This document shows, piece after piece, positions 3,604 to 63,780 of a stretch of DNA of 63,780 nucleotides. The notes below the pieces were generated by a model, which was not told where the DNA came from, searched no databases, and worked only from the letters and a program-made list of their open reading frames with translations. The DNA comes from Geosiphon pyriformis uo1 (Eukaryota; Fungi; Glomeromycota), in contig JAAOMT010000254.1 of the NCBI GenBank assembly GCA_016748015.1, positions 62,221-126,000 on the forward strand, written 5' to 3'. Position 1 is the stretch's first letter; each line of letters begins with the position of its first letter. The translations under genes and the position numbers were made by a program.

Positions 3604-4543
3604 TATTACAGATAATTATTTGGAATATGGAAACAAATAACAAACTTGTAACTTGGTATTTAATGGCTTGTACAATTGATAATACCTGAAAGTTTTGGTA
3701 ATTTGAAGGTTTTTGTATTTGAAGGTTTTAGGTTAGAGTTCTATGTATAATATATAGAAATTCAATAGTTGTTTTTAATAGTCTTTCAAAATGATTATTC
3801 CATCAATTTTTTTCTTTAGTGTAATGGCCAGTTTATTCTGGCAGTTATGTTTTTCTGATAAGCTACTTATTAATTTATAAATTCTATATCCTTATTTCTG
3901 GGTCTTTTACCAAGCTATTTTTAACATCAATTAATTAGCACTTAATCTTTTAAATTAGTTAATAAACAACAAACAACAAAGAAATAAAAGAAAATAAAAG
4001 AAAATAAAGAAAATAAGAAAAAAAAATAAGAATTAATATTTTGTTAATAGCTGTTATCAAAAGCTATTGTTTTAGTGTAATTAAATATTGAATATTATCA
4101 ATATAAAGTGTTAATAATAGATAAATAATGAAAATTTTCAATCAAATAACAATAACATAGATTAGATAATAATAAATATATTTATTAGATATTTTTGATG
4201 AGTTTACTTTAATTGATATTACTATTTGTGAAGTAAAGATTAATTAATAGATAAGAAAAAAAATATTCAATTGAAATTGAACTTAATTCTAAATACTTTT
4301 TTCACTTTTAATGCTAATGTTATATATATAGTTAGTGTTATATAAGATTGCTAGAATTTTGCAATTTTTTTAGAAAAATTCTGAAATTCTGAAATTCTGC
4401 AATTTTTTATGAAGAATCTTGAAATTCTGGAATTCTGAAATCCTGCAATTCTTTCAGAAAAATACTGAAATTTCTCTATTACTATGTTTATTTTTGATTG
4501 GCTATTCCTCTAACTATGATATTCTTAATTTCTATAAGTAATA
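3604..4543 (-). repeat. 3' LTR of family A' element
   Basis: Ends TATTACA / GTAATA (mutated TGTTAC..GTAACA). Reverse complement aligns with LTR 13483-14337. Internal GAATTC(T/C)G tandem repeats. Confidence 0.88.
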
Positions 4544-5117
4544 TATTTTTTTTTTTAATATTGAGCTCTATTAAAATCTTCTAAACTTTTTAGATTTCCT
4601 TCTTGAATTAACTCCATAACTTTCTTCTCTAAAATTGTTTTTGTAAATTTTATCTGCAATTCTTTAAATTAAGCATTGGTTAATTTTTCCAATTGATTAA
4701 TGATTACAGTATCCATTGTTAAATGTAATAATATTTCTGGTCTGTTTTAAAATCCTATCTATAGTCAATAAATAGCTTTTACATATGTAAATAAATTGTT
4801 CTTTCTAATAATTTGTTTAATTTGTTGTAGTTAAATTGGATCAAATTTTTTTTTTGTTTTGTTAGTATATAAGTTTTTAATGCTTAACTATTGTTCTAAT
4901 TAATAGTAACAAAAGTTTTTTTGATTTTGTTGTATCCATTGGTTCTAGTTTTCTAAGATCAATTCATCTTTTAATATTAATATTCTTGAATTTTTTAATG
5001 TTTTTTCTATTTTTTCTATTATTTTATTTACTGTATTCTTAGAAATATAATATCTAAAATATTGTTCTTTGGTTTGGTTTTTTTGTGGTATCTTTTTGTT
5101 TTTATACTGTATTATGT

Positions 5118-5870
5118 TATTATGGTTGAAACTTATACTTCTTATTAATTATCACATATATTAACCACTAATGTCATATAATTAGTCACTCTATTTTTAG
5201 ATAATGATTATTGACCTAATTAATGACTTGACCATTAACCTGATCATTGACTTAATTATTGACTTAATCAATAACCTAATTATTGACTTGATTATTGACT
5301 TAATCATTAATCTAGTTATTGATTTGATTATTAACCACTTTTTGATAGCTATATAAGCAATAAATTTCTTAGCTATAGAAAAGCATATAAAAATTAAAAA
5401 AAAGAAAATAAATAAAATAACAACTTTCATCTCAATCATTTTTTTATTGCTAATTTCTCTTTCCCTATTTTCAAATATCTGAACATCTTGGGATAAAAGC
5501 TTACTTGTTGGTTGTTTTCTACCTTTTTCCTAAAATATGTAATTACAGCATTTGAAAATTATTGAATAAAACATGACTGAAGAGTACATCTAATATCTGA
5601 TATTAAATTCTAAGAGCACCGACATGAAGCATAAAATTATACCAGTGTGTAATCATTTGTTGACAGTATGAACTATCTCTCTACTTTCAGATTCCCTAGT
5701 TATCTTTTAAAAAGTATAGCAACTAAGATATTTTATAAGACTGATTTCGCACATTGAATCCATACTCATTCAATTTACTCTTTGAAATTAAATTCTTTTT
5801 GATTTCTTTTATTATCTTACAATTCTGTTTTCCCTTGTTATTTGTTAGTTTGTTACTCCAACCCATAATA
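5118..5870 (+). mobile_element. Solo LTR, family B
   Basis: Colinear with 6144-6810. Perfect 4-bp TSD ATGT (5114-5117 and 5871-5874). Removing it restores the A' ORF3 frame. Confidence 0.9.
5205..5336. repeat. 12-bp tandem repeat (ATTGACYTRATY) inside family B LTR
   Basis: About 10 units here versus about 3-4 units in the other LTR B copy (~6232-6280). Confidence 0.8.
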
Positions 5871-6143
5871 ATGTGTTTATTAATAATAATTTCCAGGCTT
5901 GATTCTTGTTGTTGAATCAGTTGTAATAGTTGTTGTATAAGTGAGTAGATATTGTTAGTAATTTTCATTTTTTCTTGTTGTTTTTGTTACATGTGTTGGT
6001 TTTTTATATACTGTTCTGATAGATCAATTTAATGTGTTTGTTTCAATGATAATAATTAGTTCTAAATCTTGTGAAATTTTATTTGGTTCAACTAGTATTC
6101 TTTGTACTTTCAATTGTGAAATATTATTGGTAAATAATAATAC

Positions 6144-6810: not shown

Positions 6811-6816
6811 TAAAAG

Positions 6817-6832: not shown

Positions 6833-6862
6833 ATTGTCAAAATCCACTTTGTTTCCTATTGT

Positions 6863-8900
6863 ATGGGTGATTATTTATACCTGCCACAACAATCAAAAGA
6901 ACACTTTAAAGCACACAACAAAAACGATCTAGACTTTATTAAACTCAATCCTTTGCCCTCCTGCTTGATTTGCTTCTCCATTAGAGATCAATTCAATAGA
7001 CAATTCCAAGATTTTTGGAACTGGTTCCTGAACAAGCATTCAGCTGAAATCTACACAGTCTATACAATTTATTACTTTGATCAAGCTTATTTTAAAGACA
7101 ACTTTGAAGAAAGAAACAACAGCATCAATCAACTTTTATACTCCACAACCTTTGAACAACAGCCTCCTGATTCTGAATATCTGAATCATCAAATCCACAT
7201 TTGGATTACTGCTCATCAAGCAACTGAAACTCTCTTTGAAACAGAAGAAGAAAGCTACCAAACTGCTCCTGTTTTTGATCTTTTATCAAGCAAATTAGAC
7301 TCATCTACACAAACAGTTACCCCTGAACCAATGGCTAATGATCCCATGTAAGCAAACATTCTGGCCATTCTCCAAAATATACAAACTGCTTTAGGAAGAA
7401 GAAACAATACCCCATTACCACTATTTAGAAGTAATGTACAAGATTTAATTGAATAGTTGGATGATTTTGAGAGAGCTACTACAGCCAACCAGTATGATGA
7501 AGAATACAAGTTCCAAATCATTGGTGGCTATTTCCAAAACTCTCCTGCTACCTGGTTCTTACAAGAAACAGATGCCAATGCTCAACACCAAATAATCAGA
7601 TGGACATCAACTAATGCTAGAAAAAAAAATACTTCTTTTACTACCTGGTTTAAGACCAAGTTTAGAACCTCAATATTAATATCCAAAGGTGCATGGAATT
7701 GGAAAAAAAACCCAAGGCTCTGAAGAAGTAGTAACTGAATATGCCAAAGCTATCAGAAAGCTAATCAAACATATAGACTTTGGAAGAAATTAGACAGAAG
7801 AGCAAAAAATTCATTCTTTCACAAAAAGATTAAAAACTGATCTATCATATGTTCTTTGGCCTCTCTTGGCTTTAAAAGATAACTCAACAATAGACATGGC
7901 TATTGAACTGGCACAAAAAATTAAAGATAATCAAAGGATACATTTGGGATCCATACTTCCAGTTTTTGCTTTTGCTCTTACCATGGCTCCAGCTCCACAA
8001 ATAGCTGCTGCCTCTTTTGCTGTCCAAACTCAAGACCCAAATAAACAGTTAATAAATAGACTTACAGCTAATCTTGTTTGGCTACTAGAACCTTTGGCCC
8101 AAGCAGTTAGAGAAAATCAACAACTCCAAAAACTCAGATTTGAACCCTGCTTCAATCAGCCCCAACAATCATCATATCAAAGACAGCAAAATTGTGGCCC
8201 ACCTGTGTGCTATCACTGTGAACTAACTGGACACTTCTTAAGAGACTGTAACAATCCTCCATTGCTCTCTTTAGCTCCTAGAAATAATAATATCCAGAAT
8301 AACAGACCCAACAATAATAATGTTTCCAATCAAAGACCCAATCATGCCAACATCAAATTTCTTTGAAGAGAATTCTCTAGTAGAAGCCACTGTTTATTAG
8401 CCTTTAAACTGGTAGGTGCACCTCCAAAGGGTAAGAGTGCAAGCCAACCAGAAAAAAACTCCTTTTATGCTTTTAACTTAACTAATGATGACCATAACAT
8501 GGATAAACTAGCAATCAATACTTCTGAATCAACAAGAAAAAAGAAAAAAGCCAAAGTTAATTTCGTTATAGATCCAAAGAAAGCCTTTACATCAACTGCT
8601 GATAACAATGAGCTACCAAAAGCTAAAGTTTTAAAAAATTCTCTAAAGTTGGAACCTTCAGAAATTGTACAAAAATCTGGATCATATTCTGTTGTCAAAG
8701 ATCTCATGGAAACTCCTGCTTACATTACTTTTGGCCAATTAATAACCTATCCCCAATTTAGAAAAGATCTTTACAAATTATTAATACTAAAGAAGAAGAC
8801 ACTAAAAACCAACAAATGCCCTTGTCAAGCTGGACTTGCTGACAACAGCAATATTACTCTTCTGATTTGCAAAACCCAAGTGGCTGGCTACTTTATTGAA
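6863..8900 (+). pseudogene. gag: gag of family B, truncated at the start of the protease
   Basis: Capsid-like region (LDDFERA..ANQY; VTEYAKAIRKL; IHSFTK.LKTDL). Zinc knuckle CYHCELTGHFLRDC at ~8208-8249. Ends at ICKTQVAGYFI, just before the expected LDSG. Confidence 0.85.
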
Positions 8901-11900
8901 TAATTTACACAATTCCAAAAGAAGAAGAACCAATCAGCAGCTGTAAATCGAAATCAGAGTCACTGTTCAATTCCAATTCAAACTCTGACAATGATGACAA
9001 TGAAAATAACAGTTCCAGCTCCATCCAAAATGACAACAAAAATTACGATAATTTAAACTCCAATTCAAATCCCGAACAATACATCACACTTCCTAATCTC
9101 TCTAAGGAGCAGAAACTAAAATGGTTTAGTAACAATGATGAAAGCATTATGCCAGAACATGCACATGATACTAATGCAGAATTTAATCTGAGATATCTCA
9201 GAAAAGATGCCATTAAATTGGAACCACATTCATGTACCTGTATTGATCTTAAAATAGCACTGGAAATTTTAACAACAACAATAATTCAACTAGTATTCAA
9301 GAGTAGTTTAGCAAAAAAAGGAGTCAATATTAGAGAAAGAATAATTAATGCAGAATATATAGGAAACATTATTGCAATGCTACAAAATAACTCTGAAAAA
9401 GCCTATATCATAAAGCCAAATGAAAAGATAGCACAGGCAATATTCTTATTTCTGGTAAAAATAGCTCAGCTAGTACCAGTGAGAAATAGAGAAGAATTAG
9501 GGATTACAGCAAGAGGGATACAGAGATTCAGATCCATGAGTAGAATAGATGTACCAGTTAATATGGCAGAGAAAAAAACTGTTAACAAGAGAGAAATTAT
9601 CTTCACCTATTAATTAATTTTCATTCTATCATATGACCAATACATGTTAGTTATAGAGAAAAAAGTAAAAAATCAGGTTCAAATTTTTGAGACAAAAGCA
9701 ACACTTTGTAAATCAGGAGAAATTGGATTAGTCAATCTATACATACCAGTCAAGAATTACAGTCACATAAAAATTCTCATTTACAACAACACGAGAAACA
9801 TTATTGAGATACTAAAAAGAACTACCATTGGATATTTAATCACCGAAATTAAAAAACAACCACCAAACCCTATTTCAGACTTTTCACAATTGTGTAGATA
9901 TGTGAATATTACATCACAAACAATATATGGATGAGAAAAATGTTATCTGCTCCAACCAGAACAATTGGAACAGATAAACTTGAAAAATCTAGACCCACTA
10001 CAATGTATACAGCTTAAAATATTACTTAATAATTTCAATAACATCTTTGCCAGTAAAAATGAATTTGGCAGAACTAATATAATCCAGCACCAGATCAAAA
10101 CTGGAGATGCAATGCCAATCAAACAGAGAGCATACAGAGTACCATCTGCCAGCCATGAAATTATTTATCAAGAAATCAATTAGATACTTGACAATGGGTT
10201 AATTCAACTATCAATAAGCCTATGGTCATTATCAGTAATATTAGTCTGTAAGAAGAATAGAAAAATCCGCTTTTGTGTGGATTACCAAAAACTAAATGGA
10301 GTAACAAAAAAAAATAGTTACCCAACTCCAAAGATCCAAAAACTGTTTGATGCTTTTGGAGGAAAGAAATGGTTTTCAACTTTGGACTTAGACAGTGGTT
10401 ATTGGCAAGTAGCTATAAAACCAGAAGATAAAGAGAAAACAGTGTTCACAACACAAGAAGAAAATTTCGAATTCAAAGTGATGCCATTTGGCTTGATGAA
10501 TGCTCCAGCCACTTTTCAGTGACTTATGAAAATTGTTTATACTAGACTACTATAGAAATCAGTAGTCATATACTTAGATAACACCAATGTGTTCTCAAAA
10601 ACATTTGATAATTATCTGCATCATCTCCAACAAGTATTTGAAAGACTTTGACAAGCAGAATTGAAATTAAATGCAAACAAATACTTCTTTAACAAAATGG
10701 AACTTAAGTTTTTGAGACATGTTGTGAGCAAAAATGGTATTAAAACAGATCCAGATAAGATTGAGATTGTTAAGAACTTTTCAGTACCAAATAATCTTAC
10801 AGAATTAAGAGCATTTTTGGAATTTGCCAGATACTACCACCATTTTATCAAAGACTTTTCCAAAATAACTCAACCACTACATCAATTTCAAACAAAAAAC
10901 ACCAAATATGAGTGGACTGAAATCCAACAAAAAGCCTTTGACACACTAAGAAGAAAACTTATTCAAGTCCCAGTATTAATCTATTTAGACTACAGCAAAC
11001 CATTTATCATTACCACCAATGCATTAGGCCAAGCATTGGAAGCAGTACTATCACAGAGAGAACCAAATGGAAAAGAATATTTAATAACTTATGCCAGTAG
11101 AAGCTTAAGTTCAGCTGAAAAGAACTATGAAACTCCAGTATTGGAATACTTAACAATCTATTGGACTGTCATAAAATGGAAAAAATACTTGAGTCAAAAG
11201 TTTGATGTGTATACCAATCACAAAGAATTGACTTCAATCCAGAAGTAAAAATTTGGAGACAATTGTCATGTCAAATGAAAAATAAAACTTTTACTATTTA
11301 ATTATATAGTATATTATAAAAAAAAAAAAAAAACAGAAATGCCAACAGATTGTTATGAATAAGACAAATCTAAAAACATTTCAACCCAAAAATATAACAA
11401 AAGATGAATATACAAAAATATCAACAACTCCAACATTATATAAATACCAAATTGTTCAAGGAAAAATTATCTCAAAAAGAACAAAGGAACATGAAACAAC
11501 AATTAAAATATTTTATCAACCATTAAAATATACTTTACCAGAAGAACAAAAGAAATCCAGATCAACCAACCAAAGTAATTACAGAACCAGAGAAAAAGAC
11601 AATATTATTTAACATACACTCAGATTCAACAGCAGAACATTTTTATAAAGAAACAACCATGAAAAAAACCAAAAAAAGATACTATTGGCCATCAGTGTAT
11701 CCAGACATCATCTAATATGTTCAAAATTGTGATGCTTGTCAGAGAAAAGGAGAAACAAAACCCAATGAACCATTGAGACCAATCAAAGTAAAACAACTAT
11801 TCGATCATATTGGAATTGACTTAGTCAGACTATTAACAATTACCAGCAGAGACAACAGATATATTGCAGTAGTCATAGATTATTTCACAAAATGGCCAAA

Positions 11901-12780
11901 AGCAAAAGCCATTCAAAGAGCAGATGCAAAATCTGTTACTGAATTCATTTATCAAGATTTGATCTGTCAATATGGATGTCTAAAAGAACTACTATCAGAT
12001 CAAAGAACTCACTTTGTGAATAAAACATTGGCAGAATTAAGTCAAAAATTTGGGATAAAAAGACTATTATCATTACTATACTATCCACAAACAAATAGAC
12101 TAGTTGAAAGATTTAACAGAACATTGTGTAAAGCCATTGCCAAAATCAGCCAAGAAAATTAAGATAAATAAGATTTAATTATATTATCAGTATTATTTGC
12201 TTATCAAACAATGAAGCAAAACACTACACAAGCAACACTATTTAAATTAGTATATGGTAGAACAGTGACATTACCAGTTGAGATAGAAGTTAAGACATAT
12301 TTAACAGAACCAATAACAGAAGAGAATTTTCAAAGAACATTGTTGAGAAGAACATATGACTTAATGGAAACACTAGAAAACACACAGCAAAAAACAGCTG
12401 ATAACATTCAGAAGTTACAAAAAAAACAAAAAGAAAGACATAATAACCAACTACCAGAAAAACCAGTTGAATTCAAGATTGGAGACAAAGTACTTTTACA
12501 TTGTACTAAAGCAGAAAAACAATGAAGTGGAAAATTTGACCCCAAATGAGATGAACCATTTCACATAAAAAAAATTCTTGGAAATAGAGCTTATAAATTA
12601 AGATTAAACAACAAAATCTTAACCAAAGCAGCACATAGTAATCAACTGAAACAATATTACCATATAGTATCATCATTTACCAGTAATATTTTACAATTAG
12701 AAATACAGAAAATACTAGTCAAACCAGATAAGATTCTACAAGATCTAGAACCAATTATAATCATTGAACCAAACACATAA
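8901..12780 (+). pseudogene. pol: pol of family A: linker - dUTPase - RT - RNase H - integrase, no chromodomain
   Basis: RT motifs RFCVDYQKLN, FSTLDLDSGYWQV, VMPFGLMNAPATFQ and YLD(N) at 10571. RNase H motifs KPFIITT(N)A and YASRSL. Integrase H..H/CDAC, GIDLV, SDQ.THF, QTN.LVERFNRT and GPY/F-like KFDPKW.EPF. Confidence 0.93.
9149..9542 (+). pseudogene. dut: dUTPase domain of family A pol
   Basis: All five trimeric dUTPase motifs in G>A-eroded form: NAEFNL (DAGFDL), KSSLAKKG (RSSL), RIINAEYIGNI (GIIDAGY.GNI), EKIAQ and RGIQRFRSM (RG.QGFGST). Confidence 0.88.
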
Positions 12781-12838
12781 AATTGAACAACCAAGAAATA
12801 TAAAAAGACACAGTATATGCAACAAAAAACAGCAGAAA

Positions 12839-13468
12839 ATAGAAATTACTAACAGCATTCACTTATTAACACAACAACTTTTTCAACTAATTCAACAACA
12901 AGAGATGAAAATTACAATTAACCAAAAAACTATCAGATACACAAACATCAGAAAAGAATTATGAGATAAAAAATGGAGAAAAACAAAAACCACTATGGAC
13001 AAAATAATCACAAAAGTAAAATTGGCAGTAAAAACACAACCAAAAGTCACTCAATATCAAGAGCTGACTAAAAAAACTTGGGATTGGTGAATACAACAAT
13101 TTTCAAGAAACTTTTGTTACTTTTATTTGGGACAATACTTGAAAATTTAGGGCTTGTATATGGATAAAACAAAATAATTATTTGACACAACAATATTGCA
13201 ACAACTGGAACAATTTATGAGAAAGAACAATTTGACCACACAAGCAAGAGCCATTTATCAGTTACATACTGGATTTCAAGATTGACCAGAAATCTTACTC
13301 AATCCAGAAATAAACTCCATTACCATTAACCAAATGGGAAAAATAACCAATGCTCAATTTGAAAAATTACAGAACAAGATAGCACAGGTATTTCTTGAAA
13401 AAGAAGTTCAAAAAATACTCAAAGACAGAGAATTAGAATTGGAAGATCTCAATAAAGCTCAATATTAA
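12839..13468 (+). pseudogene. ORF3 (unknown protein, ~209 aa) between integrase and PPT, family A
   Basis: One frame with 5 internal stops, most explained by single C>T/G>A changes. Start ATG>ATA; ends LNKAQY* abutting the PPT. Homologous to the equivalents in A', C and D. Confidence 0.78.
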
Positions 13469-13482
13469 AGAGAAGGAAATAA
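13467..13482 (+). promoter_or_regulatory. Polypurine tract (AAAGAGAAGGAAATAA)
   Basis: Immediately 5' of the TGTTAC LTR start. Confidence 0.85.
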
Positions 13483-14337
13483 TGTTACTCATAGAATATA
13501 GGAAGTATATTAGTATATAAATTAGCCAATTAGAAGTAACTGTAATAAATGTGGAATTTCAAGATTCCTCTTAAAGAAATTACAGGATTTCAAGAATTTT
13601 AGGATTCTCATACAAGGAATTGCAGGATTCCAGAATTCCAGGATTTCTCCCAAAAGAATTGCAGAATTTCTGGAATTCTAGGATTCTTGGTGTAAAGAAT
13701 TGAGGAATTGAGAAATCTTAATTATGTATATATAGCAGTAATATTAGAAGTAGAAAAGACAGATCTCTCTATTTAAATTTGATCTAAGCAACCTTCCATT
13801 TACAAATATTAATAAATAATTATTCACTATTTCAATTCACTCTCCACTATCAACACTTCATGTTAATAGTAATTGATACTTAATCACACTAGAACAATAG
13901 CTCTTGATCATGACTATTGATGGAATACTAATGTGCAAAATTGCCTTGGCTTATGTTTCTTATTTTTCTTTATTTTTTTTTCTTGCTTTATTTTTTTTGT
14001 TATTTGTTAAACTTAATTAAAAGGATTTACATGTAGAAATACTAATGTCAAAATAAAGTGACTGGTAAAAGACCCAGAAATAAGGGTAGAACACTCAATT
14101 AAGGATAGCTTACCAGAAGGGTTACTGGCTATTACACTGAAAAAGAAATTGACAAAACTGCAGTTTCAAGAAGCTATGAATAAAACAATCAATTAAATCT
14201 CTGTTCATTATACAAAAGACTTAACCAAAACCTTCAGAAAAACACATCTTCAAATATTACCAACAGCAGTATATCAATTAAACACCAAGTTATGGGTTTG
14301 TTATTTGCTTTAAGACCCTAAATAATTACCTGTAACA
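13483..14337 (+). repeat. 3' LTR, family A
   Basis: TGTTAC...GTAACA terminal inverted repeat, preceded by a PPT; homologous to 35416-36291. Confidence 0.92.
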
Positions 14338-44163: not shown

Positions 44164-45217
44164 TGTTACCTAAGTAAAAAAACCAATCTGAAGTTATGAA
44201 GAAACATGACCAAGAATGTAACATAACACAGAATAGTATGCAATAACATTAAATAATACGTTATAACTTAAGATAGTGCAGAATAACATGTTATAACATA
44301 AGATAACACAAAATAACATATAATAACACCAGATAATATGTTATAACATAGAATAATTAGTAATAATGTAAAAAAATGAAACAATAACAGAAATAACAAA
44401 GCAATAGTTAGCAATAATAAAACAATCAAAAGCAATCCTATAAAACCAAAAATATATATAAAAGCAAGTAGTTATAGAAAGTAGAAATGGCAAACAAATA
44501 GATACAAATCACTAAACAAGAATCAAATATTCTTACCTCTTCCATCATTTATTTTATTCTATCTTCATCTTCTGAAATAAATCAATTATTAAGAAATCAG
44601 AATCACAAATTCATGTTCTTGAACTTTGTAAAATTTACATGAACTAATAATTGTTTTGTATCTTTATTCCAGAATAGATGCTCTTAGCATAACTGTCTCA
44701 AACTATTAACAATTTGGACCAATCACTCTTGATCACAGTGATTGATAATACTAATTTATCTTTTTTTTTATTTTCTTTCTTTTCTTTTATTTTCTTTCTT
44801 TTCTTTTATTTTCTTTTTATTTTTCTCTTGTGAAGCAGCAACATAGTAAAATTAACTGTCTAAGAATAGACTTCATGATAGTTTAGTAAAAAAGGGAAGC
44901 TCTCTCTAAGTTTTTGGATATTAACATTATCTTGATAGCTTACTAAAAAGGCAAAAAAACACCACCAGACTCTAATGACTGTGCTTGTTAGCTTGGAATA
45001 GAAAGTTCACCTTTATAAGAAGTTGCAATCAACGAAAACCAAAACTCTGTGCCTTATAACCAAAAAACTCAATAGGTAAATTCACAACCAGTAAAATAAG
45101 ACCTTTAGAGACTGATAATCAAGATTAAGCAACCAGAATTACATAAAACATGCCTTACCAATAATTGAGAGCACTAAACATTACCATCTTCTTACTTTAC
45201 CAAGTTTACTCATAACA
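44164..45217 (+). repeat. 5' LTR, family C
   Basis: TGTTAC...TAACA; direct repeat of 53280-54314; internal ATAACA tandem array. Confidence 0.93.
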
Positions 45218-45219
45218 TT

Positions 45220-45236
45220 TGGTGCTTCTTGTAAGG
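45220..45236 (+). promoter_or_regulatory. Primer binding site TGGTGCTTCTTGTAAGG
   Basis: TGG starts 2 nt after the LTR end. Confidence 0.8.
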
Positions 45237-45284
45237 TTATAAATCCACAAAAACAGAGCACTCCAGAAATTCATAAAAGTGGTG

Positions 45285-47250
45285 ACTATTAAAACAGTAG
45301 GAAAAGACCACTTTCCATATAGAAGAGCATTATTTTAATACTTTTAAAAAGATCTAGAAATACTAGCAGAAACTGCTTACACAGAAAGTAATTTTTGTAA
45401 CTATATCAATGCAAAAATTGACTGCTTATTAGGCTGCACAACCAACACAGAAAGACTTAAAGAACAAATCCATCAAAGCTTATTAGGATACTCAACAGCC
45501 ACAACTATTTAAGCAATTGCTGAAACTCTGTACATAATTGATACAGACATTAGATATTACATGGCAAAATAATTCTCTCAAGTACAACAATCAATAGAAT
45601 CTAACTCTGAGGAATACAAAAACAAATCCAACAACCCCACAACTGCCCAAGCCAAGTCCATAGTCAACAAGAAACCAAAGTTCCTTTTCTCAACAACTCT
45701 ATTATACTATCAAATACTCCAAAGTAGAATTGTATTCAACCCACCTCCAAAAACCCAGTTGGAAACACCACAAACTTCTGGAAATCCACACCTCTGGGGT
45801 CAACACAATTGGACCAAATCATTAAGAGAATATGGATCATTGTTTGGAAATCTTATCCCAATAATTAATAAAACAGATAAAAATATGTCAACATGGAAAA
45901 CACCACCAATCCAACCCTTGACTGAATCATCAACTACTCCTTTTGAAAAAACAGCTATTCTCCAGTTCATTAAAAAAATTAACAAAAGGAAACAACCAGA
46001 ATTAGCACCAGAAAAACACCTTAACATGCAAACACCAAACTCCTTAGCATCAACCAGTAAGATTCCACCTATTTACCAGATTATGGCTTACTGAGATATT
46101 GCCAAATTAGAGAAATTCTTTAGTGAAAAAGATAATGCATATACATAGATTGCAGAAGCCAAAAAAGTCATTACTACTAACAATTGGGATGATGATAGAG
46201 CCATTCAAGCATTGTCATTTTTTCTGACTGGAACTGCAAACTTATAATATCAAAGTCTTGCAGAAAAACCAACTGACTTTGCTGCTTTTAAACTTGCCTT
46301 TCTGCAATATTTTTGTGACTCCAACACTCTCATCAGATTACAAAATCAGTTCAGTATCATAAAACAAAAAGATCATAAAACAGTAATCACTTATCTTGAA
46401 CAATTTAACCAAATCTTTTGTAAAATTTAGGCCATTGAAAGGGACTACTACACTATAATGCAAATCCTTAATCAATTCATCAAAAGATTAAAAAGCAGCC
46501 TCCTCTAATCCATAAGACTCTGCCATCTGACAAATCTACAAGAGGCAGTTACTCTTGCTCATGACTTTAAGTCAGCAAAACAAGAGACTAATCATACTTA
46601 AGCCGTTAATCTGGCTATTAATAGAATATTCAATATCAACACAAAAATTACTCAATTAAGTGAGAAATTAACTCAGAAAATTGAGGGATTTTTAGCCAGT
46701 ATCATAAGACTCTACCAGCCACTATAATAAAGGGATAGTAATAACAACAGATACTAACAACAACAGAATCATTAGCAACAACAACAATCTTAGAGATCTG
46801 ATCTCTGTAATTGTTACTATTGTTAGAAATCTAGACACATTGTCTGAGATTGCCATAAGAAAATAATGGACCAAAATTAAAAAAAATCAATATTAGCAAC
46901 CAAGATACTCTCAAAACATGGTATTCCAATACTCTGCACCTTAATATCAACTATCTTAATACTCACAACAAATTTAGTATACTTAGCAACTGCCTCAGAA
47001 CTACTATCAGTCATCACAGCCAATGGCTTAAACAACATCCCAGTATCAAAACCCTGTTAATAACCAACCTAGACATCATGCAATTGATTACAACCAAGGA
47101 TAGAAGAACTCCAACAACAATTAGATGCCAACTAACAGTATACTATCATGATCCCTAAATTATAGTAATATTCTATCTTGACCAGTACCAACCAGATACT
47201 TTAACCAAGTTTCATATCTTGGTCTCAATGAAAACCAGGATTTTTATAGC
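45285..47250 (+). pseudogene. gag: gag of family C
   Basis: IAKLEKF..NNWDDDRAIQAL.FFLTGTA capsid-like region; QFIK.LK; eroded knuckle CYYC*KSRHIV*DC at ~46812-46853; Gln/Pro-rich tail. Boundaries are approximate. Confidence 0.8.
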
Positions 47251-47429
47251 TTTATATTTTTAGAAGAAAAAAATGTAAAAGAGACTCCCAACTCTTTGAG
47301 GTAAAATTAAACCAACAATACTATTCCACCTGCCACTATCACTGAAGATACCACCCTTGCTGCTATTTTTCCTTTTGATATTGATGGTCTGAACACAAAT
47401 AGCCTTTTCAGTGAAACTACCATAAATCA

Positions 47430-50400
47430 GAACAAACCAATTATGGCACTGTATACTGATGCTAAAGTCAGAAACATAAACATTAAATTAATTCTCAATA
47501 GCAAATCAACAGGCAGTATAATAATGAAACAACTCATGGATTAATTAGGTTACCAAGTAAATCATGCTGCAACTGTCTGAATAATTATTACAGATAACAA
47601 TACCAAAACTCCAATTGGAGAAATCAATAACTTTTTCTTTAAAATCAATAGAATCCAAATTCCTATAAAAGTTCTGGTTATAGAAGCCATGCAATATCAA
47701 GCTCTTGTCAGAAATGATTAGTTGACCAAAGCCCATATCACTTTTGACTGAAACACACAGGAATTACAGATCACCTTTAATGAACAACATGTCTGAGTTC
47801 CAGTTATGTGTGGACACTTTAAAGTCCAAAGCTCGGAGGAACCACTAATTGAATTTGAAGACACTACACCACCACCAACCATAGAAACCTATCAAGTTTC
47901 GTGAATAGATGATTTCTGAACAAAGTTACTTCCACTACCAACTTGAGAAGAAAAGGGAAAGGGAAAAACAGAAGAAGAACTACAATTGGCATCTGCAGGC
48001 TATTTTATCTTAAGTCAAAGAAGTCAATAGTATCAAACCCTGAAATTAATTTGTGTTGACTGTAAGAAAAGTTATTTTTTATAGATGCATGTATCAGAGA
48101 TAACAAAAAATGGCCAATTGCCACTAAACATTATTGCAGACTTTGTGTGTTGGAAAGATTTGGCAGACCAAAATAACAAGGCAAATGAAACAATATATTA
48201 TGCTTTGTCTGTAACAAGATTCTGCCAGATGAAAAACTATAGAATAATGTTCTCAGCAGAAAAGAAACATGCAATGAAACATGTCAATACACAATTTTGA
48301 TCAATGATTGGATACAAAAAGGAACTCCAATTAATGATACCTGAAAACAAGCATTATAATGATTAGACAGGTATTCCTACAATGAACACAAGATTTGAAA
48401 AATGGTGAGTGTGAAAGCAGAGGGCACTACAACCAATGAAGTACTGAAAATCAAAAACAACCTCTTATTTCTTCCAGAACCCAAATATATTATGACTTTT
48501 GATGTCTTTGGCAATATTGAGGACGACCCAAAATACTTCCATGAGCACTACCAAAACTTGGCACTGACTAGGAAAGAGCAGAAACAAAAACTAGCTGACC
48601 TAAACATAAAACTGTACGATCATTGTTTGATTTCTTACTATTTTCAGTACTGCGACAAATGCAATATCATGTTCAACTTGCCTCCAAGAAAACTATACCC
48701 AATTACTGAACTACCAAAACCCAAAGAAAAGAGGAATTAATCATCAAGAACATGTCATTTCAAGATCCAATTGAGAATACTAAAACAGAACAGTATTTTG
48801 TGTATCTCAACCTATCTAAAGAATTAGAATTAAAATGGTACAGTGACAACAAGGAAAGAATTTGCCTAAAAAAAGCACATGACACCAATGTTGGTTTCGA
48901 CCTACAATACCCTAAACAATCAATCATAGTTATAGTCTTATATTCCTTTGTAAAAATAGATCTTAAGATAGTATTAGAAATTTCTGTTAGTACAATGGTA
49001 CAAGTTGCCTCTCAATCTAGTTTAGCCAAAAAAAAATTAACATAAAGAGAGGAATTATCAATGTTAGTTATACAGGAAACATCATAGTGATGCTACAGAA
49101 CAATTTGAACAAACTCTACAAAATAGAATCACAAGAAAAGATTGCCCAAGCTATCTTTCTACTCCTAATCAAAATGCCCAATTGAACCCAATAACAACCC
49201 AAAAAAAATTAAGCCTTACTGTCTGAGAAATTAATGGGTTTGAATCAAGTGGAAGAGAAAACGTACTAATTAACTTTATGAAGAAAGATAATAATCAGGT
49301 AGAACTTATCTATACTGACACAGTCATTTTTATTCTCTTTTATTAACAATATATCCTCAAAGTGAATCAAAAGATCCAAGATCAAGTCTTATTATTTGAA
49401 GCCAATTCTGAAATCTGTTTTTTAGCTGATGTTGCTAACTTATATCTATTGGCCAAAGTCCATAAACACTTCAAAATCTCTATTTATAACCTCACAGAAG
49501 ATGTAATTGAAATCCCCAAAGAGACTCTTATTGGTTCTATCTTACCAAACATTCAACATTCCAAAAAACCCCAGTCTATTTCAGATTTTATGCAATTGTT
49601 CTTATTTTGCAATATCACTTCACAAGTATGGAATCAGCCAAAAGAAAGTTATTTGTTTACACCAGAAGAGATTAATAAATTGAATCTCGGGAACTTAAGT
49701 ATCCTGTAGCAAATGCAATTCAAGATTCTCTTGAATCAATATGCCAATGTCTTTGCCAGTAAAAATGAATTTGGATGCACCAATATTGTAAAGCATCAGA
49801 TTGATACAAGAAATGCTTAACCTATTAAACAACAAACTTATAAAGTACCTTCATCTGGTGACAATTTTATCAAACAAGAAGTCCAATGAATATTTAACAA
49901 CAGCTTAATCAAAGAATTGTTAAGCCTTTGGTTCTCTCCAATAGTTCTGATCACCAAGAAAAATAGAAAGATACAATTCTGCATGGATTACCAAAAATTA
50001 AATAGTATCACCTAAGAAGATAGTTACTCCACTTCCCTCATTCAAGAAATCCTAGACAATCTAGAAAAAAAGAAATGGTTCTTGTTATTAGACCTAGCCA
50101 GTGGATATTGGCAGGTCAAAATGGATCTCAAAAATAAAATAAAAATGGCATTTACCATTCAAGACAAAAACTTTGAGTTTAATGTAATGCTCTTCAAATT
50201 CTGCAATGCTCCTACTATATTTTAATGTCTTATAGATGTTGTGTACAAAAGAATTTTTTGGAAATCAGTTGTAGTTTACTTAGATGACACAAATGTATTT
50301 TCTAAAATGTTTGAAAATCATCTGCTTCATCTTCAACAAGTCTTCAAATGCCTTTGAAATGCCAGATTAAAACTCAATTCTGAGAAATGTTTCTTTGAAA

Positions 50401-52447
50401 AAACCAAGTTAAAATTCCTAGGACACATAATTGGCAAAGACAGAATCAAATCTGATCTGGACAAAGTCCAAAAAGTTAAAAATTTTCCAGTCCCAATCAA
50501 CTTTTAAAAGTTATGAGGATTGGCAAGATTGACAGAATACTACCACCAATTTGTTAAAAGGTTTTCAACTATTGCAAAACCTTTTCACCACTTGTTGTCC
50601 AAATACATGCTGTACCTATGAAAAAAAAACCAACAAAAAACATTCGACTATTTCAAGCAGTGATTGATTATATTCCCAATCCTGATTTATCCAGATTTTA
50701 CTAAATGGTTTATTGTCATTACAAGTGTCTCAAAAAATGCTCTAGAAGCAGTCTTATCACAGATAAAATCAAACAATAGAGAACATCCAATTGCCTATAC
50801 CAGTCGCAACACTAGCCCAGCAGAAAAAAATTACAGCACAACAGATTTGGAATGTCTTATCATTTATTGGGCCATACAAACATGAAAACATTATCTTGGC
50901 TTGCCTTTTGACCTATATACTGATCATAAAAGACTTGTTTAATTACTTAACAATCCACAATTGGAAGAAAAATATGCAAGATAGAGTACTTATCTACAAC
51001 AATTCTTACTTAAAGTTCATTACAAAGAAGAATCCAAAAACACCAATGTCAACAGTTTGTTAAGGATGCCACAAACCTAATCCCAGACCCATGGACACAC
51101 TCACTTATCAATGACAATATTAGTACTTATTAACACTATGTTTTAAGGAGATATTATCTCAACAGAAACAAAGTACCATACAAAAACAAGCCTGAAAATA
51201 TTTTATTCAAGACAACCAACTATATCAACGAGAATGCTGAAACCACCTCACCTTACAATGAGTTATAAAGAACAATAAAAAGAAAACGATATTACATAGT
51301 ATGCATTCTAATCCAACCACAGAACACTTTAACAAAGATGCTACTTTCGAAAGAACATTAAATTTATACTATTGGCCAACAATATACAAAGACATTTTTG
51401 AATACATGCTCAATTATGATTTATGCCAGTAAAAAGGAAAAGCAAGATTAACAGAACCACTTCGACCCATTCTAGTTGAAAATCTATTTAATAAAATTGG
51501 GATTGATTTGGTTGGACCTTTCTTAATTACATCTCAAAGAAATTACTATATTGCTGTAGTCATAGACTATCTTACAAAATGGCCAGAAGCCAGAGCAATC
51601 CAAGTGGCCAATGTCAAAACAGTAGCCAAATTTGTGCATCAAGACCTAATTTGCTGACATAGATGTCTGAAAGAATTATTATCTGATTAAAGAACACATT
51701 TTGTTAATAATACATTAACTGAAATAAACCAATAATTTGGAATAAAGTGACTTTTATTATCACCATATCACTCACAAACAAACAAATTAGTAAAACAATT
51801 TAACTGAACATTATACAAAGCACTAGCAAAAATAAGTCATAAAAATAAACAAGAATAGAACTTATTCATATTTTTTATACTCTTTGTATACCAAACATTA
51901 AAACAAAAAACAACTCAATTTACACCCTTTAAACTAGTCTATGAAAGAAAAGCTATATTACCAATTGAACAAATGATACTGTCATATCCAACAGAAACAA
52001 TCAATAAAGAAAATTTTGAAGCTACCTTATACCAAAAAACGTACCAGCTAATAGAAACATTAAAGAACAACAGCTGACAATATTAGTTATGCTCAAGAAC
52101 AACAAAAAAAAAGACATAATAACTGCCTATCAGAACAACCAATGGAATTTAAGATTGGAAACCAAGTATTGTTACATCATACAAAAGCTGAGAAACAGTG
52201 GAATGGAAAGTTTGACCCAAAGTGGGACAGTCTATTCCACATATATAAAGCTTTAGGAAATAGAGCTTACAAATTATGATTGGAAGACAAGATTTTAAAG
52301 AAAGTAGTACATGGAAATTGGTTAAAAATTTATTATGCAAAACAGAAATCATTATTATCAGTACCTCAGCTAAGAACACAAATTTCATTAATCAGACCAG
52401 AAGATATACTACGAGATCTAAAACCAATCATCATTATTGAAATATAG
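47430..52447 (+). pseudogene. pol: pol of family C: protease, Cys-rich insert, dUTPase, RT, RNase H, integrase
   Basis: LILNSKSTGS is an eroded LILDSGSAGS (~47490). AHDTNVGFDL dUTPase (~48875-49250). YLDD at 50277-50288. HPIAYTSR; IGIDLVGP; KWPEARAI; KFDPKWD. Confidence 0.92.
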
Positions 52448-52513
52448 ACAATGTGCAGCAAATTAAATTAGAGAATTCAAATATATATAGTATCTGAAAA
52501 ACAGCAAGAAACA

Positions 52514-53265
52514 ATAGAACTTTTAATATAGACTTGTCAGATCAAATTCTACAACTCTCAAAACAACTATTTAACACAATTCAACAATCTTCTGCTCAAA
52601 TAAAAGTGACAATTAATAGAAAAAAAATACACTATAAAGATAGAAGCAAGAAAGGAATAGGCACAAATTCAACTAGAACTAACTATTCTCATTCCAATAC
52701 TCTGCTCAAAAAAAAAATTTTAAAAAAAGAAATTAAATTGTCTTGAGCAGAGCTTGAAAAAAGAGTAGAGGAATGAGAAAAAGTTTATAAAAAAAGATAC
52801 TTGGTCTCCAAGCTAAAAAAAATCAAAGAAGTTTTAGCTCATGAGATTAATCTCCTTAAAACAGGGGAATAAACACCAGACAATGCAAAAGAATGAAAAG
52901 AAAAACTTTTTCTAACTTATTGGTTCTACAAAATGGGTGAACAATTAGACTTAAAGACGTTATATAAAGACTTCAGCCAGAAAACTTTCAACAAAAAAGC
53001 AATGCAACAAGTAAAAAAATTCATAAGAAGAAGCAACCTAACTCTATATTACAAAGCAGCATACTAACTATATGCTGCTTTCCAATTTTGTCCAAATGTA
53101 CTGTTGTATGGATCTATAAAGATGATAACAGTTAACAACATAGGACAAATTATTAATCAACAGTTCAAAGACTTATAAAAAGCAATACTCGACACAACCA
53201 TCAAATATTACACAAATGAAAACATAGGAACAGATACATCCAATTTTGCAGAAGCTCAATTCTAA
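52514..53265 (+). pseudogene. ORF3 relic, family C
   Basis: LSDQILQLSKQLFNTIQQ..KVTINRKKIHY; YWFYKMGEQL; YKAAY.LYAAFQFCPNVL..ITVNNIGQIINQQF; ends NFAEAQF* at the PPT. Confidence 0.75.
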
Positions 53266-53279
53266 AAAGAGAGAGATAA

Positions 53280-54314
53280 TGTTACCTAAGTAGAAAAACT
53301 GATCTGAAGTTATAAAAAAACGTGACCAAGAATGTAACATAATACAGAATAGCATACAATAACGTTAAATAACACATTATAACTTAGAATAGTGCAGAAT
53401 AACATGTTATAACATAGAATAATACAAAATAACATATAATAACACCAGATAATGTGTTATAATATAGAATAACTAGTAATAACATAGAAGAATAAAGCAA
53501 TAACAAAAATAACAAAGCAATAGTTAGCAATAACAAAACAATCAGAAGCAATCCTGTAAAACCAAAAGAATATATAAAAGTGAGTAGTTATAGAAGGTAA
53601 AAACAGCAGACAGATAGATATAAACTACTAGACAAGAATCAAATATTCTTATCCTTTCTATTATTTATTTTATTCTATCTTTATCTTCTGAAATAAATTA
53701 ATTATTAAAAAATCAGAATCACGAATTCATGTTCTTGAACTTTGTGGAATTTACATGAACTAATAATTATTTTGTACCTTCATTCCAGAACAGATGTTCT
53801 TAGCATAACTGCTTTGAACTATTAACAATTTGGACCAATTGCTCTTGATCATGGTGATTAATGATATTAATTTATCTTTTCTTTTATTTTCTTTCTTTTT
53901 TTTTATTTTTTTTTTATTTTTCTCTTGTGGAGTGGCAATATAGTAAAATTGACTATTTGGGAATAAACTTCATAATAGTTTGGTAAAAGAGAGAAGCTCC
54001 TCCTAAGTTTTTAAATATTAATATTATCTTGATAGCTTACCAAAAAGGTGAAAAACCACTGCCAGACCCTAATGACTGCACTTGTTAGCTCAAAGAAGAA
54101 AGCTCACTTTTATAAGAAGTTGCAATTAGCGAGAACCAAAACTCTGTGCCTTATAACCAAAGAACTCAACAGGTAAATTCACAACCAGTAAAATAAGATC
54201 TTTAGAGACTGATAATTAAGATTAAGCAACCAGAATTACGCAAAACATGTTTTACCAATAATTAAGAGCACCAAATGTTACCATCTTTCTACCCTACCAA
54301 GTTTACCCATAATA
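53280..54314 (+). repeat. 3' LTR, family C
   Basis: Preceded by PPT AAAAAGAGAGAGATAA; direct repeat of the 5' LTR. Confidence 0.93.
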
Positions 54315-58654: not shown

Positions 58655-59623
58655 TGTTACTGAAGGTTTTTGGTCTCTTTTTTTGAATGTTATTAATGTT
58701 GATTTGCTGTAAATTCACGTTTTCAGAAAGTAGTTGGACCTCCAATAACTTTTATTTTCAAATTATCTCCTATAATTTGAACTGCTGGGCTTATGAATGG
58801 AATGACCAATTCCTTGCCAGTTACTTTATGTAGTTACATTGTAGTAAACATCAACTCTTTCCCAGGAATTGCTCATTTGGAAGCTCACTAAAAATGTGTA
58901 GTTACTTTGTTGTAAAAGTCAATTCATCTACAGAAATCTTGTCTGTAGACTACCCTAATAATTATGATAAGAAAATAAAAGAAAAATAAAAGAAATATAA
59001 AAGAAATAGAATTTTATTAAGGGAAACGTTTTCTATCCAGGCCTGAAGTCACTAACAGTTTATTGTAATTGGTAGCTAATCAATTTCAAAACGTTAGTTG
59101 TGTTAAGGAAATTTCAAGTGTAATAATTTAAGGATATGGTTTTTAAATATTTAATTTTTATTTGAATGTATAAAAAATGATTTGTTCTAATTAAGATATC
59201 TAAAGTAAAATACTATGTTAAAATATTATGAAAAGATACATTTTTTTGAAGAAAGAAGCTCTTCTTTTATACAACTTGTTGTAGTACTAGTCTTTGAACT
59301 TGCACTTTTCTCTTTGCTACAATTTGGGTGAACTAAAGATACATTTTGGCAAACTACAAGTTATTTCACTGAACTATTTGATTATTTCGGCGAATTTTCA
59401 TTAATTTCGGCGAATTTTGACTATATTAAATAGTTCAGGGTATTGTGTAATTTGATCATCTTAATTTCTAGAGTACAAATCGAATTATTAATTGAGTAAT
59501 AATATTTGATAATTTGATTAAATAATAAGTGATAATCAAAATAATAATATTATATGCTAATTGATAATAGGAATTATAAGGGTAATTTCGTGCTAATTAA
59601 TAGCTAAAATTTTACTGGTAACA
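58655..59623 (-). repeat. 3' LTR, family D
   Basis: TGTTAC...GTAACA; PPT (reverse complement AAGAAGAAGATTA) at 59624-59636; target flank ACAG. Confidence 0.9.
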
Positions 59624-59634
59624 TAATCTTCTTC

Positions 59635-60300
59635 TTAAGACTGAGCTCTGTTAAAGTCCAAGCACTATCTATAATGTTAAGATAGTAGTCTAAGATAATT
59701 GAAGTGATCTGATCTGAAAATTGTTGAAATTTCAGTTCTGTGAGTTTTCTAATGTATTGAATCTTCATTGGATGGAGTATTGAATTTTGTAGGACGTTTT
59801 TACAAGTATTGAATAAATTATAGAGTCTAGATGCTGCTCTAAGTTTGTAGTGGATGTTTGTTAGTCCAGCTGCTGTTTTGAATTCATTGTGAATTTGTTT
59901 TTATATAGCCTCAGGAATGATGTTGGTTGCTTCAAGTTCTAGTTTTCATTCATAAAATGTTTTTTCAATATGAAAATATCTATATATAAGAGTATGTTCA
60001 TTGTTTTGTTTATTAAAAAATAGTAGAAGTTTTTGTTGTATTGTGGCATTTGGTGGAATGTCAATAGGGGCAATTAAAAGGTTTTCTTTTAGTGCTTGCT
60101 TCAAAAGTTCTGGTAACCTATTTTCAAAGTGACTTCTTGCTTTTCTTCTATAGGAATAATAGTTCTGAGAATTATTTACTACTGGGGCTGTGTTTTTTTT
60201 TGAATGTAATTAATTTGACTTCTATTAATCATTATGAATAAGTCAGGAAGTGTTTTCAAGGCTAACATTAATTTTTAAAATATTTGTTGAATATTTCGGG
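59635..60300 (-). pseudogene. ORF3 relic, family D
   Basis: YRYFHI..TF; KLRAASRLYNLFNTCKNVL..KIQYIRKLTELKFQQF; ends DFNRAQS* at the PPT. The 5' boundary is uncertain. Confidence 0.68.
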
Positions 60301-60464
60301 GAATAATCATAATAAAAATAGTTAACTAATAAAAAGAAGAATAAAGAAAATTATTTTTGGATATGAGGTTTTATTTGTTTTTAGGTTTAGGTGTTTTTTG
60401 TAATTATTTACTATTTTTGTTTTTGTGTGTTATTAAAATAATTATTGTAAAATTATGTTAAATT

Positions 60465-63400
60465 AAGTGTTCAAGTTTGGTTGTTGTTCTATTATAATTA
60501 TTGGTTCTAAATTTCAGAGAATATCTTCAGAATTAATTAAAGGGGAATGTATACCAATTTGTGAAATTAATGATTCAAGATTGTTTCTGGAATGATAGTG
60601 TTTCAATCTATCTCCATGTGCAACTTTTGTTAGTACTTTGTCATCAAGTCTTAACTTGTATGATCCATTGCCTAAAATTTCATGAATATAAAATGGTTCA
60701 TCCCATTTATATTCAAATTTTCCACTCCATTGTTTTTCAGTCTTAGTTTTGTGTAAGAGAACTTTATTTCCAACCTTAAATTTGTTGGTAACTGGTGGCA
60801 ATTTGTTGTCATGCCTTTTTTTTTGTAGAGCTTGAGAGTGTTCAATATGAGAGGCTGTTATGTGTCTTTTTTTTTCTAATATACTAAAGAAAGTGTAAGC
60901 TTTTCTTTGGAGTGTTTCTTGAAAGTTTTTTTTATTGATTGGTTGCACTGGGTATGTTTCTACTGTGAAATTAATTGGTAATGTTGCTGTCCTTTCATAA
61001 GTAAGATCAAATGGTGTGTGTTTTGTAGTATCTTGTTTTAGTGTTCTGTATGCTAATAACACTAATAAAATAAAGATATCCCATTCTTGTTCAAAATCTG
61101 TTGAGACTTTGGCTAAAGATTCACACAATGTTCTGTTGAAATGTTCTACAAGTTCATTTGTTTGAGAGTGATAAGGTGATGATAAAGGTTTTTTGACATT
61201 GAATCATTCACAAATTTTTTGTATCAAGTTGTTCACAAAATGTGTTCTTTGATTAAATAAAAGTTTAATTGGGCATCCATGTCTACAAATAATGTCTTTA
61301 TAGATAAAATTTGCTACTGATTTTGCATCTGCTCTTTGGATGGCTCTAACCTCAGGCCATTTGGTAAGATAATCTATTGCAACTGCAATATAATAATTTC
61401 CTTGGGTTGTGATAGATAATGGTCCGACTAAATCAATTCCAATTCTGTCAAAAGGTTGTTCAACTTTGATTGGATTTAAAAATTCTGTGGGGCGAGTTTC
61501 TTCTTTTTTTTGACAATTATTACAAGATTCTATATATTGTTGAATGTCTTTTTGCATGTGAGGCCAAAAATAATGTTCAAGAATTCTTTGAATTGTTTCA
61601 TCTCTTCCCAAATGTGCTAAAGAAAGATCTGTATGCATGTTATATAGGATTGTTTTTTTTTGTACTAATCTAAGTGGTTGGTTTGGGTTTCTGTGATTTT
61701 TGTAATAAATTTTGTTATGGTGTATAAAATATTGTTTGGATTAGTGTTGTAATCAATGTTTTTTACTTGGAGACCAATTTTCTGGTATGATAAGAGTCTC
61801 CAAATAGTTTTTAAGATTGTTGTAATTTCTGGGATCCATTGTTGCTTTGTTATTTGTTGGTAAGTTGGTAAGTTGTAATAGATTTATTGATGTTATTAAT
61901 CTTGTCTCATTCTGGAAAGGCTATCAACATTTGTGTGTAATTTTCTTGGTTTGTGGTATACAATATATTTGTAATCTGCTAGGAAGTTATTCCATTGAGA
62001 CTGTTTAACACTTTGTTTAGTTTTCTTTTTATTGAGCCATTTGAGGCCAATATTGTCAGTTATAATATCAAATTTTTTTTTATTCTTCAGATATTGTTGA
62101 AAATGTTTAAGAGCCCAAATGATTGTGGCAGCTTCTAATTCAGTTAAGCCATATTTGAGTTCTGTTGATTTGAGTGTTCTACTAGCATAGACAATGACTT
62201 GCTCCTGGCCATTTTTATTCAATTGTAATAGGATGACACCAAATGCTATGTGTAAAACATCAGTGACTAGTTGAAATTATTTGTTAAAATATGGGTAAGC
62301 AAAAACTGGGGCTGTTGTTAGTTTTGTTTTGAGAGTTTCAAAAGCTTTCTGTTGTTCTTCAGTCTATTTGTATGGCACATTTTTGTTGGTGAGATAATTG
62401 AGTGGTTTGGCAATTTCTAAGAATCTTTTGATAAATTTCTGATAGTATGAGGCTAATTCTACAAATCCTTACAACTTTATGGTATTTTTGGGTGTTTGGA
62501 AGTTTTTGACAGCACTGATTGTTCCAGAGTTTGGTTTGACTCCATCTTTGCTGACAATGTGTCCAAGAAAAATTAAGCTTGTTTTTCCAAAGTGACATTT
62601 CTCAATGTTTAACTTCAATTCTGCTTTTTGTAATTATTGAAAAACTTCTCACAAGTGAATAAAATGGGCTTCAAAGCTTGGTAAGTATACATCAGTGTTA
62701 TTAAGATAGACAACTACTGATTGCCATAAGAGTCTTTTATATACAACATCCATGAGTCATTGGAATGTTGCTGATGTATTGCAGAGTTCAAAAGGCATAA
62801 CATTGAACTCATAGTTCTCTCCTTGAGTGGTGAATGCTGTTTTGAGTCGATTTTTTGGGTCCATTTCGACTTGCCAGTATCTACTTTCCAAGTCTAAAGT
62901 TGAAAAGAACTTGGCTTTTCCTAAGACATCCAACATATCATCAATTCTTGGAAGAGAGTAGGCATCTTCAATTGTTATATTATTGAGCTGATGATAATCT
63001 ACACAGAATCTGATTTTTCCGTTTTTTTTTTTAACAAGTACTACTGGTAAGGCCCAAAGACTTCTTGATGGTTGAATCAATCCATTATTGAGCATTCTTT
63101 GGACTTCTTCTCTGATAAACTAGTGGCTAGTGGGTGGAACTTGATAAGCTTGTTATTGTTTTAGCAGAGCATCTTCTGTGTGGATCTGATATTGAACAAT
63201 ATCAGTTTTTCTAAGGTCATTGTTGTCTTTTGCAAAAATATCTGCAAATTCAGCTATTAGCTGTTTCAATTGTCTTTGTTGTTGGGGTTCTAAGAAACTC
63301 ATGTTGATTCTAGAGAGTTTTTCTTCTAAAAGATGGTAGTTTTCAGTAGTAGAAATGATGTTTGGATTTGGAAGTAATGTATATCTTATAATTTCGATGA

Positions 63401-63780
63401 AATTAGAGACAATTTGAGGGTTTTCATCTTGAAAGATGTTACTGTATATGATTCTAATCTCCAATTTGTTCAATAAGACAATAGGGTAATTATTGGGGTT
63501 GTAGAATGTAACTTGAAATTTTTTCGTTCTTTTGGGAATATAAACATTTGGAATTGAGATTTCATGCTTTAAACAGATTTGTTTATTGGAATCAAAGATT
63601 TGTTGAGTAGTGGTGGGTTTTGAACAAGTGTAGATTTCGTAATGTTCACCAAAAAGTGAAATGATAATTGGTTGGAGAAGTTGAAGAATCTGGTAAGATT
63701 CATTCTGTATATTGAGAGCTATATTTACTGAGACTGTAAATCGTCCAGTTGAACCAAAACCTTGCATTTCTCTTTTACAT
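60465..63780 (-). pseudogene. pol: pol of family D
   Basis: ORFs 63153-63767, 62757-63095, 61896-62222, 61204-61638 and 60514-61128 carry dUTPase-end, RT, RH and INT motifs; YLNN (eroded YLDD) at ~62697-62708. Confidence 0.92.

Follow-up and report, generated by a model that had tools for sequence, protein, structure and literature searches.

The Ty3/gypsy elements of fungi are usually treated as carrying gag and pol only. Plants are known to have additional open reading frames (ORFs) in the sense orientation that follow pol and precede the 3' LTR (the env-like aORF-3S; PMC7264820); plant accessory transposable-element (TE) proteins are described as outpacing the core proteins in evolution, and predictions class them as interaction-prone (PMC13547354). 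In the LTR elements of bdelloid rotifers, the non-env ORF3 is a GDSL esterase or a DEDDy exonuclease (PMC5408684), and some fungal Gypsy elements are listed with a dUTPase or with an additional ORF to which no function is assigned (PMC2864245). Anti-silencing is the role of VANC, encoded by the VANDAL DNA transposons of Arabidopsis, for which binding and demethylation have been shown (PMC5735166). The ORF3 analyzed here, located in a 63,780-nucleotide stretch of Geosiphon pyriformis DNA (the window), represents, as judged from sequence, one conserved accessory gene of a dUTPase-bearing Ty3/gypsy lineage, placed between the integrase and the polypurine tract (PPT). An extra ORF at this position is thus already known as a kind, and it is the ORF3 protein family itself that is apparently new.

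Host elements in the window

The window is AT-rich and dense in repeats, and Pfam searches of its X-read frames identified the dUTPase, RT, RNase H and integrase of Ty3/gypsy elements, designated A, A', C and D. The pol order characteristic of this group (protease, RT, RNase H, integrase) is complete in C and extends from RT to integrase in A and D; a PPT is present in 4/4 elements, and C has paired LTRs, 86% identical to each other, and a TGGTG primer site. The flanks of C (CCAC and CTAT) may represent a 4-bp target-site duplication decayed at two of its four bases, A lacks a 5' LTR, and D extends past the window edge. The dUTPase lies inside pol, between protease and RT (Pfam E 8.7e-13 in A and 7e-4 in C). 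An SH3_Tf2-1 domain was found at the integrase end of A and, weakly, of C, and no chromodomain, the mark of chromoviruses at the integrase C-terminus, was detected in the decayed copies A, C or D (Pfam, E 0.01). The main features are as follows.

7330..12780, plus strand, start approximate: decayed gag-pol of A with dUTPase, RT, RNase H and integrase with SH3_Tf2-1 (Pfam; junction sequence)
12778-12780, plus strand: integrase stop of A (junction sequence)
13467..13479, plus strand: PPT of A, overlapping the ORF3 stop (sequence)
13483..14337, plus strand: 3' LTR of A, with CCAAT box, AGAATT/AGGATT-type repeats and TATA
3606..4543, minus strand: 3' LTR of A', with CAGAATT repeats in U3
44164..45217, plus strand: 5' LTR of C (TGTTAC...CATAACA), followed by a TGGTG-type primer site
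45218..52447, plus strand: decayed internal region of C, with gag, protease, dUTPase, RT, RNase H and integrase (Pfam); the integrase stop ends at 52447
53280..54314, plus strand: 3' LTR of C, with AATAACA repeats in U3
60463..63780, minus strand: RT, RNase H and integrase of D, leaving the window (Pfam); the integrase stop ends at 60463
58786..59623, minus strand: 3' LTR of D, with ATCAAAT/ATTATCA repeats

Four elements do carry the frame, as the original prediction held, but as A and A' are sister families, with integrase ends 79% identical, the number of deep lineages in the window is three and not four. A (plus strand) likely lies inside A' (minus strand) in a nested, rearranged structure; the A' LTRs, at 3606-4543 and ~14338-15215, are 81% identical and delimit the nested region (3606-15215). 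A solo LTR at 6144-6810, without a matching target duplication, bridges the integrase end of A' and the leader of A, and this junction suggests that recombination deleted the 5' LTR of A and the gag-pol of A'.

The window also contains further decayed copies of LTRs akin to those of A and D (35412-36291 and 38725-39512, 65-73% identity) and three related decayed elements (1-3000, 19000-25000 and 55000-57200), probably non-LTR retrotransposons, one of which encodes an RNase H domain within a frame of 661 codons (628-2613). One host gene on the minus strand has a Glyco_transf_34 (GMA12/MNN10) domain (32959-34032, E 5.5e-19), and a second, multi-exon and rich in coiled coil, seems to occupy ~26777-30797 on that strand.

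Position and decay of the ORF3 copies

A homologous frame occupies the interval between the integrase stop and the PPT in all of A, A', C and D, in agreement with the original prediction. Such frames had been described as ORFs of ~200-250 aa; the homologous frames are at the expected places, but internal stops interrupt every one of them, and every ORF3 copy of the window is a pseudogene.

12839..13468, plus strand: ORF3 of A, pseudogene, 209 codons, 5 internal stops (profile match)
5871..5968, minus strand: 5' piece of A' ORF3, ATG at 5968 (the A' integrase end stops at 6029)
5118..5870, minus strand: solo LTR of another family within A' ORF3, 753 bp, 4-bp target duplication ACAT
4555..5113, minus strand: 3' piece of A' ORF3, 8 stops in ~185 codons, in frame with the 5' piece by length
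52513..53265, plus strand: ORF3 of C, pseudogene, 6 stops in 245 codons, homology from ~52528
59604..60310, minus strand: ORF3 of D, ATG at 60310, frameshift near an A-run at ~60200, 2 stops in the 196-codon core, terminal stop 20 nt inside the LTR

The ORF listing of the window contains no ORF of at least 100 aa at these places except one in antisense (5197-5529). The ORF3 of A begins with ATA, where intact relatives have Met, and is 61% identical to the intact 209-aa protein P0004. The predicted frames all proved to be ORF3 homologues, with some corrections in their limits. The A' frame (5968-4555) spans 1.4 kb because of the inserted solo LTR, whose flanks add to 219 codons in frame; the C frame, given as 52514-53265, is that of 52513+3n; and the D frame, given as ~60300-59635, crosses the PPT and terminates inside the LTR, as do those of intact D relatives.

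Homology and range of the family

A profile built from 18 A-family database proteins and searched against all six frames of the window matched A (2e-99), both pieces of A' (5e-49 and 4e-7), C (3e-17) and, weakly, D (8e-4), and HHalign related the A-family and D-family profiles to each other (88%, E 2.8e-6). With the D profile, 6/8 test proteins of A, C and A' scored above the best of 900 shuffled decoys; P0006 did not, and the A' piece was absent among the 15 matches listed. The strongest homology test, an independent one, is a profile made exclusively from six non-Geosiphon metagenome proteins, which matched D (9.7e-19), C (2.4e-11) and A (7.6e-11) in the window, missed A', and gave zero matches in the reversed window used as control. 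The four ORFs therefore align significantly by profile and HHalign, as the original prediction demanded.

Outside the window, all 74 matches of the A frame (133 candidates) and the 120 matches listed for the D frame (of 192 matches, 579 candidates) are hypothetical proteins of G. pyriformis, in whose gene models intact ORF3 versions of 209-244 aa are abundant. Among 1.84 billion representative sequences, 114 matches were obtained, four of them divergent metagenome proteins (P0231, P0232, P0297 and P0298) and the remaining 110 Geosiphon-named or similar to named Geosiphon proteins, on names looked up for part of them; a second-round search returned 20 matches of 4586 candidates (13 Geosiphon and 7 metagenomic). 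No named match from another fungus was obtained in the database searches with the ORF3 family. Pairwise identity among ten subfamily representatives is mostly 13-41%, with one pair at 66%. Many G. pyriformis "hypothetical proteins" are ORF3 copies or chimeras of integrase ends, ORF3 and neighbouring repeats (integrase C-terminal sequence occurs in 13/324 proteins fetched), and well over a hundred of them can now be read as transposon ORF3 copies.

The integrase-ORF3 order of the window recurs in two metagenome contigs. In L001 (Ga0335071_10060920), RT-RNase H-integrase is followed, after a 316-bp gap, by an intact ORF3 of 230 aa, whose frame runs over the PPT and on into an LTR, and in L002 the integrase end lies ~730 bp upstream of ORF3. 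L002 has a second open frame of 137 codons in between (398-811), with no Pfam match and no counterpart in either L001 or the window; it may be one more accessory ORF.

The motif before the polypurine tract

A DNA motif, AGCTCA.T.TT(A/G)A...purine tract...TGTTAC, is common to the five elements compared (A, A', C, D and L001).

13440-13483: motif site of A
53239-53280: motif site of C
59664-59623: motif site of D
4584-4543: motif site of A'
L001 3075-3125: motif site of L001

D and L001 read this DNA in another frame, as EL(S/N)L...IMLP. The terminal (D/N)F..AQ.* that had been taken for a conserved protein ending is consequently no evidence of protein conservation, being shared DNA read in different frames, and AGCTCA.T.TT[AG]A directly upstream of the PPT is a probable cis signal for plus-strand priming.

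Selection on ORF3

Five ORF3 pairs were compared by NG86 with bootstrap intervals. The dN/dS is 0.29 (0.16-0.47) for A-A' and 0.34 (0.17-0.64) for L001-L002, against 0.23-0.26 for integrase; the A-L001 pair is saturated, with an interval of 0.16-0.79 from 105/200 resamples, and the intervals of D-L001 and D-L002 include 1. The ratio, which a lack of constraint would place near 1, is thus below it by bootstrap interval in 3/5 pairs, the two exceptions being those with D. In a further comparison of five ORF3 pairs, codon position 2 is the least changed in 5/5. We infer that post-insertion decay has raised these values. The claim that conservation of the frame implies selection is borne out, since A-A' and L001-L002 show purifying selection. 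Protein identity is 15-26% for ORF3 where that of integrase is 58-69%, and these comparisons together indicate a constrained yet fast-evolving accessory gene.

These data bear on the proposal that ORF3 is a captured host gene or a neutral relic with no function for the element, which we regard as highly improbable. It would agree with the broken state of all window copies, with the most distant relatives (P0297, P0298, P0301, P0307 and P0308), which lack the PPT-derived tail and are known from proteins alone, and with an ESM Atlas cluster of 98 hypothetical Mucoromycota members at 0.94, which could be cellular. Nevertheless, the integrase of the same window copies is as broken as ORF3 (Pfam on decayed frames), the same position is kept across lineages whose proteins are ~20% identical, and dN/dS is well below 1 in the best-aligned pairs; selection already goes most of the way to refuting this proposal.

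Properties of the protein

A hydropathy scan, used as a proxy for membrane segments and signal peptides, gave a top 19-residue value of 0.27-1.29 in 9/9 intact ORF3 proteins, which have no hydrophobic N-terminus and 1-3 Cys; no signal peptide or transmembrane anchor was detected in any of the nine by this proxy. AlphaFold gave a confident helical core. The predicted product is soluble and helical: a small N-terminal helix with a hairpin comes first, then a flexible linker of basic character, then the compact helical core at about residues 80-200 of P0232. The original characterization as helical, unanchored and not a typical env thus agrees with both analyses. A highly diverged envelope or fusion protein would fit the position and orientation of ORF3, but is extremely improbable: the absence of a transmembrane segment contradicts it, unless splicing adds one, and no fusion glycoprotein or env family was significantly matched in Pfam, PHROG or PDB sequences.

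No known family gave a significant match in Pfam, PHROG, NCBIfam, PDB or the fold search, so that a confident match to a described retroelement domain, an outcome that would have spoken against novelty, was not found. DUF1016_N reached Pfam E 0.12 in 1/25 members and HHalign 2.7% over 15 columns, and the one DUF3102 protein compared did not score. The single Retrotrans_gag match (E 0.007) falls on P0250, a gene model that has lost its alignment to the ORF3 family in the tail; intact ORF3 had no Gag match in Pfam. Invariant residues among the ten subfamily representatives are G, R, F and L only, the invariant Arg being located in a basic helix. The family has no conserved catalytic Ser, Asp, Glu or His and no Pfam match, and does not qualify as a GDSL or DEDDy enzyme.

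Possible functions of ORF3

Set against the three functions originally proposed (silencing suppressor, transactivator or movement factor), the pattern of residues, with an invariant Arg, a basic helix and no catalytic residue conserved, agrees best with a nucleic-acid-binding regulator; the results give no sign of a hyphal movement factor. We tentatively propose that ORF3 is a DNA-binding trans-regulator of its own element (an activator or anti-silencing factor) acting on family-specific LTR repeats; the grounds are the basic helix with its invariant Arg and ParB/KorB-like fold matches at noise level in the structure search. Kinship with ParB/KorB found no support at profile level (HHalign 0.3%, below the best shuffled control, with 30 ParB proteins and no secondary-structure term). 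ORF3 begins 58-730 bp past the pol stop, hence it would be translated from a subgenomic or internally promoted transcript; the helix with the invariant Arg would bind short repeats, specific to each family, that precede the TATA box of the LTR, and binding would keep the element transcribed against host silencing, an action like that of plant VANC proteins without ORF3 being a VANC.

Short U3 repeats upstream of the TATA do vary with the family: A' has CAGAATT, C has AATAACA, D has ATCAAAT and L001 has CTTAATT. Repeat content exceeds all 100 shuffles in 6/11 LTRs and fails to do so in 5/11, among them A's own LTR. Such U3 repeats recall the targets of VANC (PMC5735166), but they are also ordinary host-factor sites, and a repeat motif matching the ORF3 subfamily is expected from descent alone. 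The fuller version, in which the lineage has its own sequence-specific DNA-binding anti-silencing factor or activator, with a fold unmatched in the PDB and co-evolving with the LTR repeat arrays, is unlikely; if true, it would give retrotransposons an equivalent of VANC and might account for LTR elements occupying ~40% of the Geosiphon genome.

It is somewhat doubtful that ORF3 acts instead by protein interaction in the particle cycle (with Gag, integrase or host transport), in RNA export, assembly, nuclear entry or inter-nuclear movement in the coenocyte. The conserved positions are mostly hydrophobic core residues and charge differs among subfamilies, as would suit such a factor; the fast-evolving, predicted interaction-prone plant accessory proteins (PMC13547354) and the comparable jobs ascribed to retroviral accessory factors (PMC7264820) are in line with it, but no positive evidence points to a partner, and contact with nucleic acid would account for the invariant Arg and the basic columns no less well. 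It is quite unlikely that ORF3 suppresses RNA silencing by binding RNA, or regulates RNA in the manner of Rev or Tat: the protein is soluble and of small size, it evolves fast and is basic in the majority of Geosiphon subfamilies, and the elements are greatly expanded (LTRs make up 41.2% of the G. pyriformis genome; PMC11952901), but no dsRNA-binding or known suppressor family was matched in Pfam, PHROGs, PDB or BFVD. The abundance of these element families argues against self-restriction, that is, copy-number control of its own or related elements, which is very unlikely even for a selected, non-enzymatic, element-encoded protein. Yeast Ty1 provides the precedent of self-encoded copy control, but its factor is derived from Gag, to which intact ORF3 shows no match.

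ORF3 is a concrete candidate for the means of escape from host control in a genome where LTRs cover 41% (PMC11952901), and the intact natural versions P0232, P0004 and P0139 make function directly testable.

Comparison with known systems

The proposal that ORF3 is an undescribed gene family has held: no catalogued family was matched, and no published description was found in a literature search covering mainly open-access main texts. The available parts of a fungal LTR survey (PMC3248453), an AMF TE paper (PMC11952901) and a metazoan env paper (PMC13524379) do not mention it. The family is real and apparently undescribed, an accessory gene of one fungal Ty3/gypsy lineage; as a selected third gene in at least ten subfamilies and in the elements of other organisms, it amounts to a new protein family whose confidently modelled core has no match.

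ORF3 resembles the plant aORF-3S in position, orientation and retention in most copies; those described often have transmembrane segments (PMC7264820), which the ORF3 family lacks, and no sequence match was found. Rapid evolution is shared with the plant accessory TE proteins (PMC13547354). The rotifer elements are likewise dUTPase-bearing and retrovirus-like with a non-envelope ORF3, but theirs are recognisable enzymes, in contrast to the Geosiphon protein with its lack of conserved catalytic residues and Pfam matches (PMC5408684). The fungal Gypsy elements share the Ty3/gypsy type, a dUTPase between protease and RT, and an extra ORF; that survey deals with elements that bear a chromodomain (PMC2864245), which was not found in the ORF3 elements. 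VANC belongs to a DNA transposon and ORF3 to a retrotransposon; the binding shown for VANC (PMC5735166) would be a predicted property of ORF3, and no similarity between the two was detected on the basis of the Pfam search. The likeness to VANC lies in the proposed mode of action, in which an element-encoded protein would recognize family-specific tandem targets in the non-coding DNA of its own element (PMC5735166).
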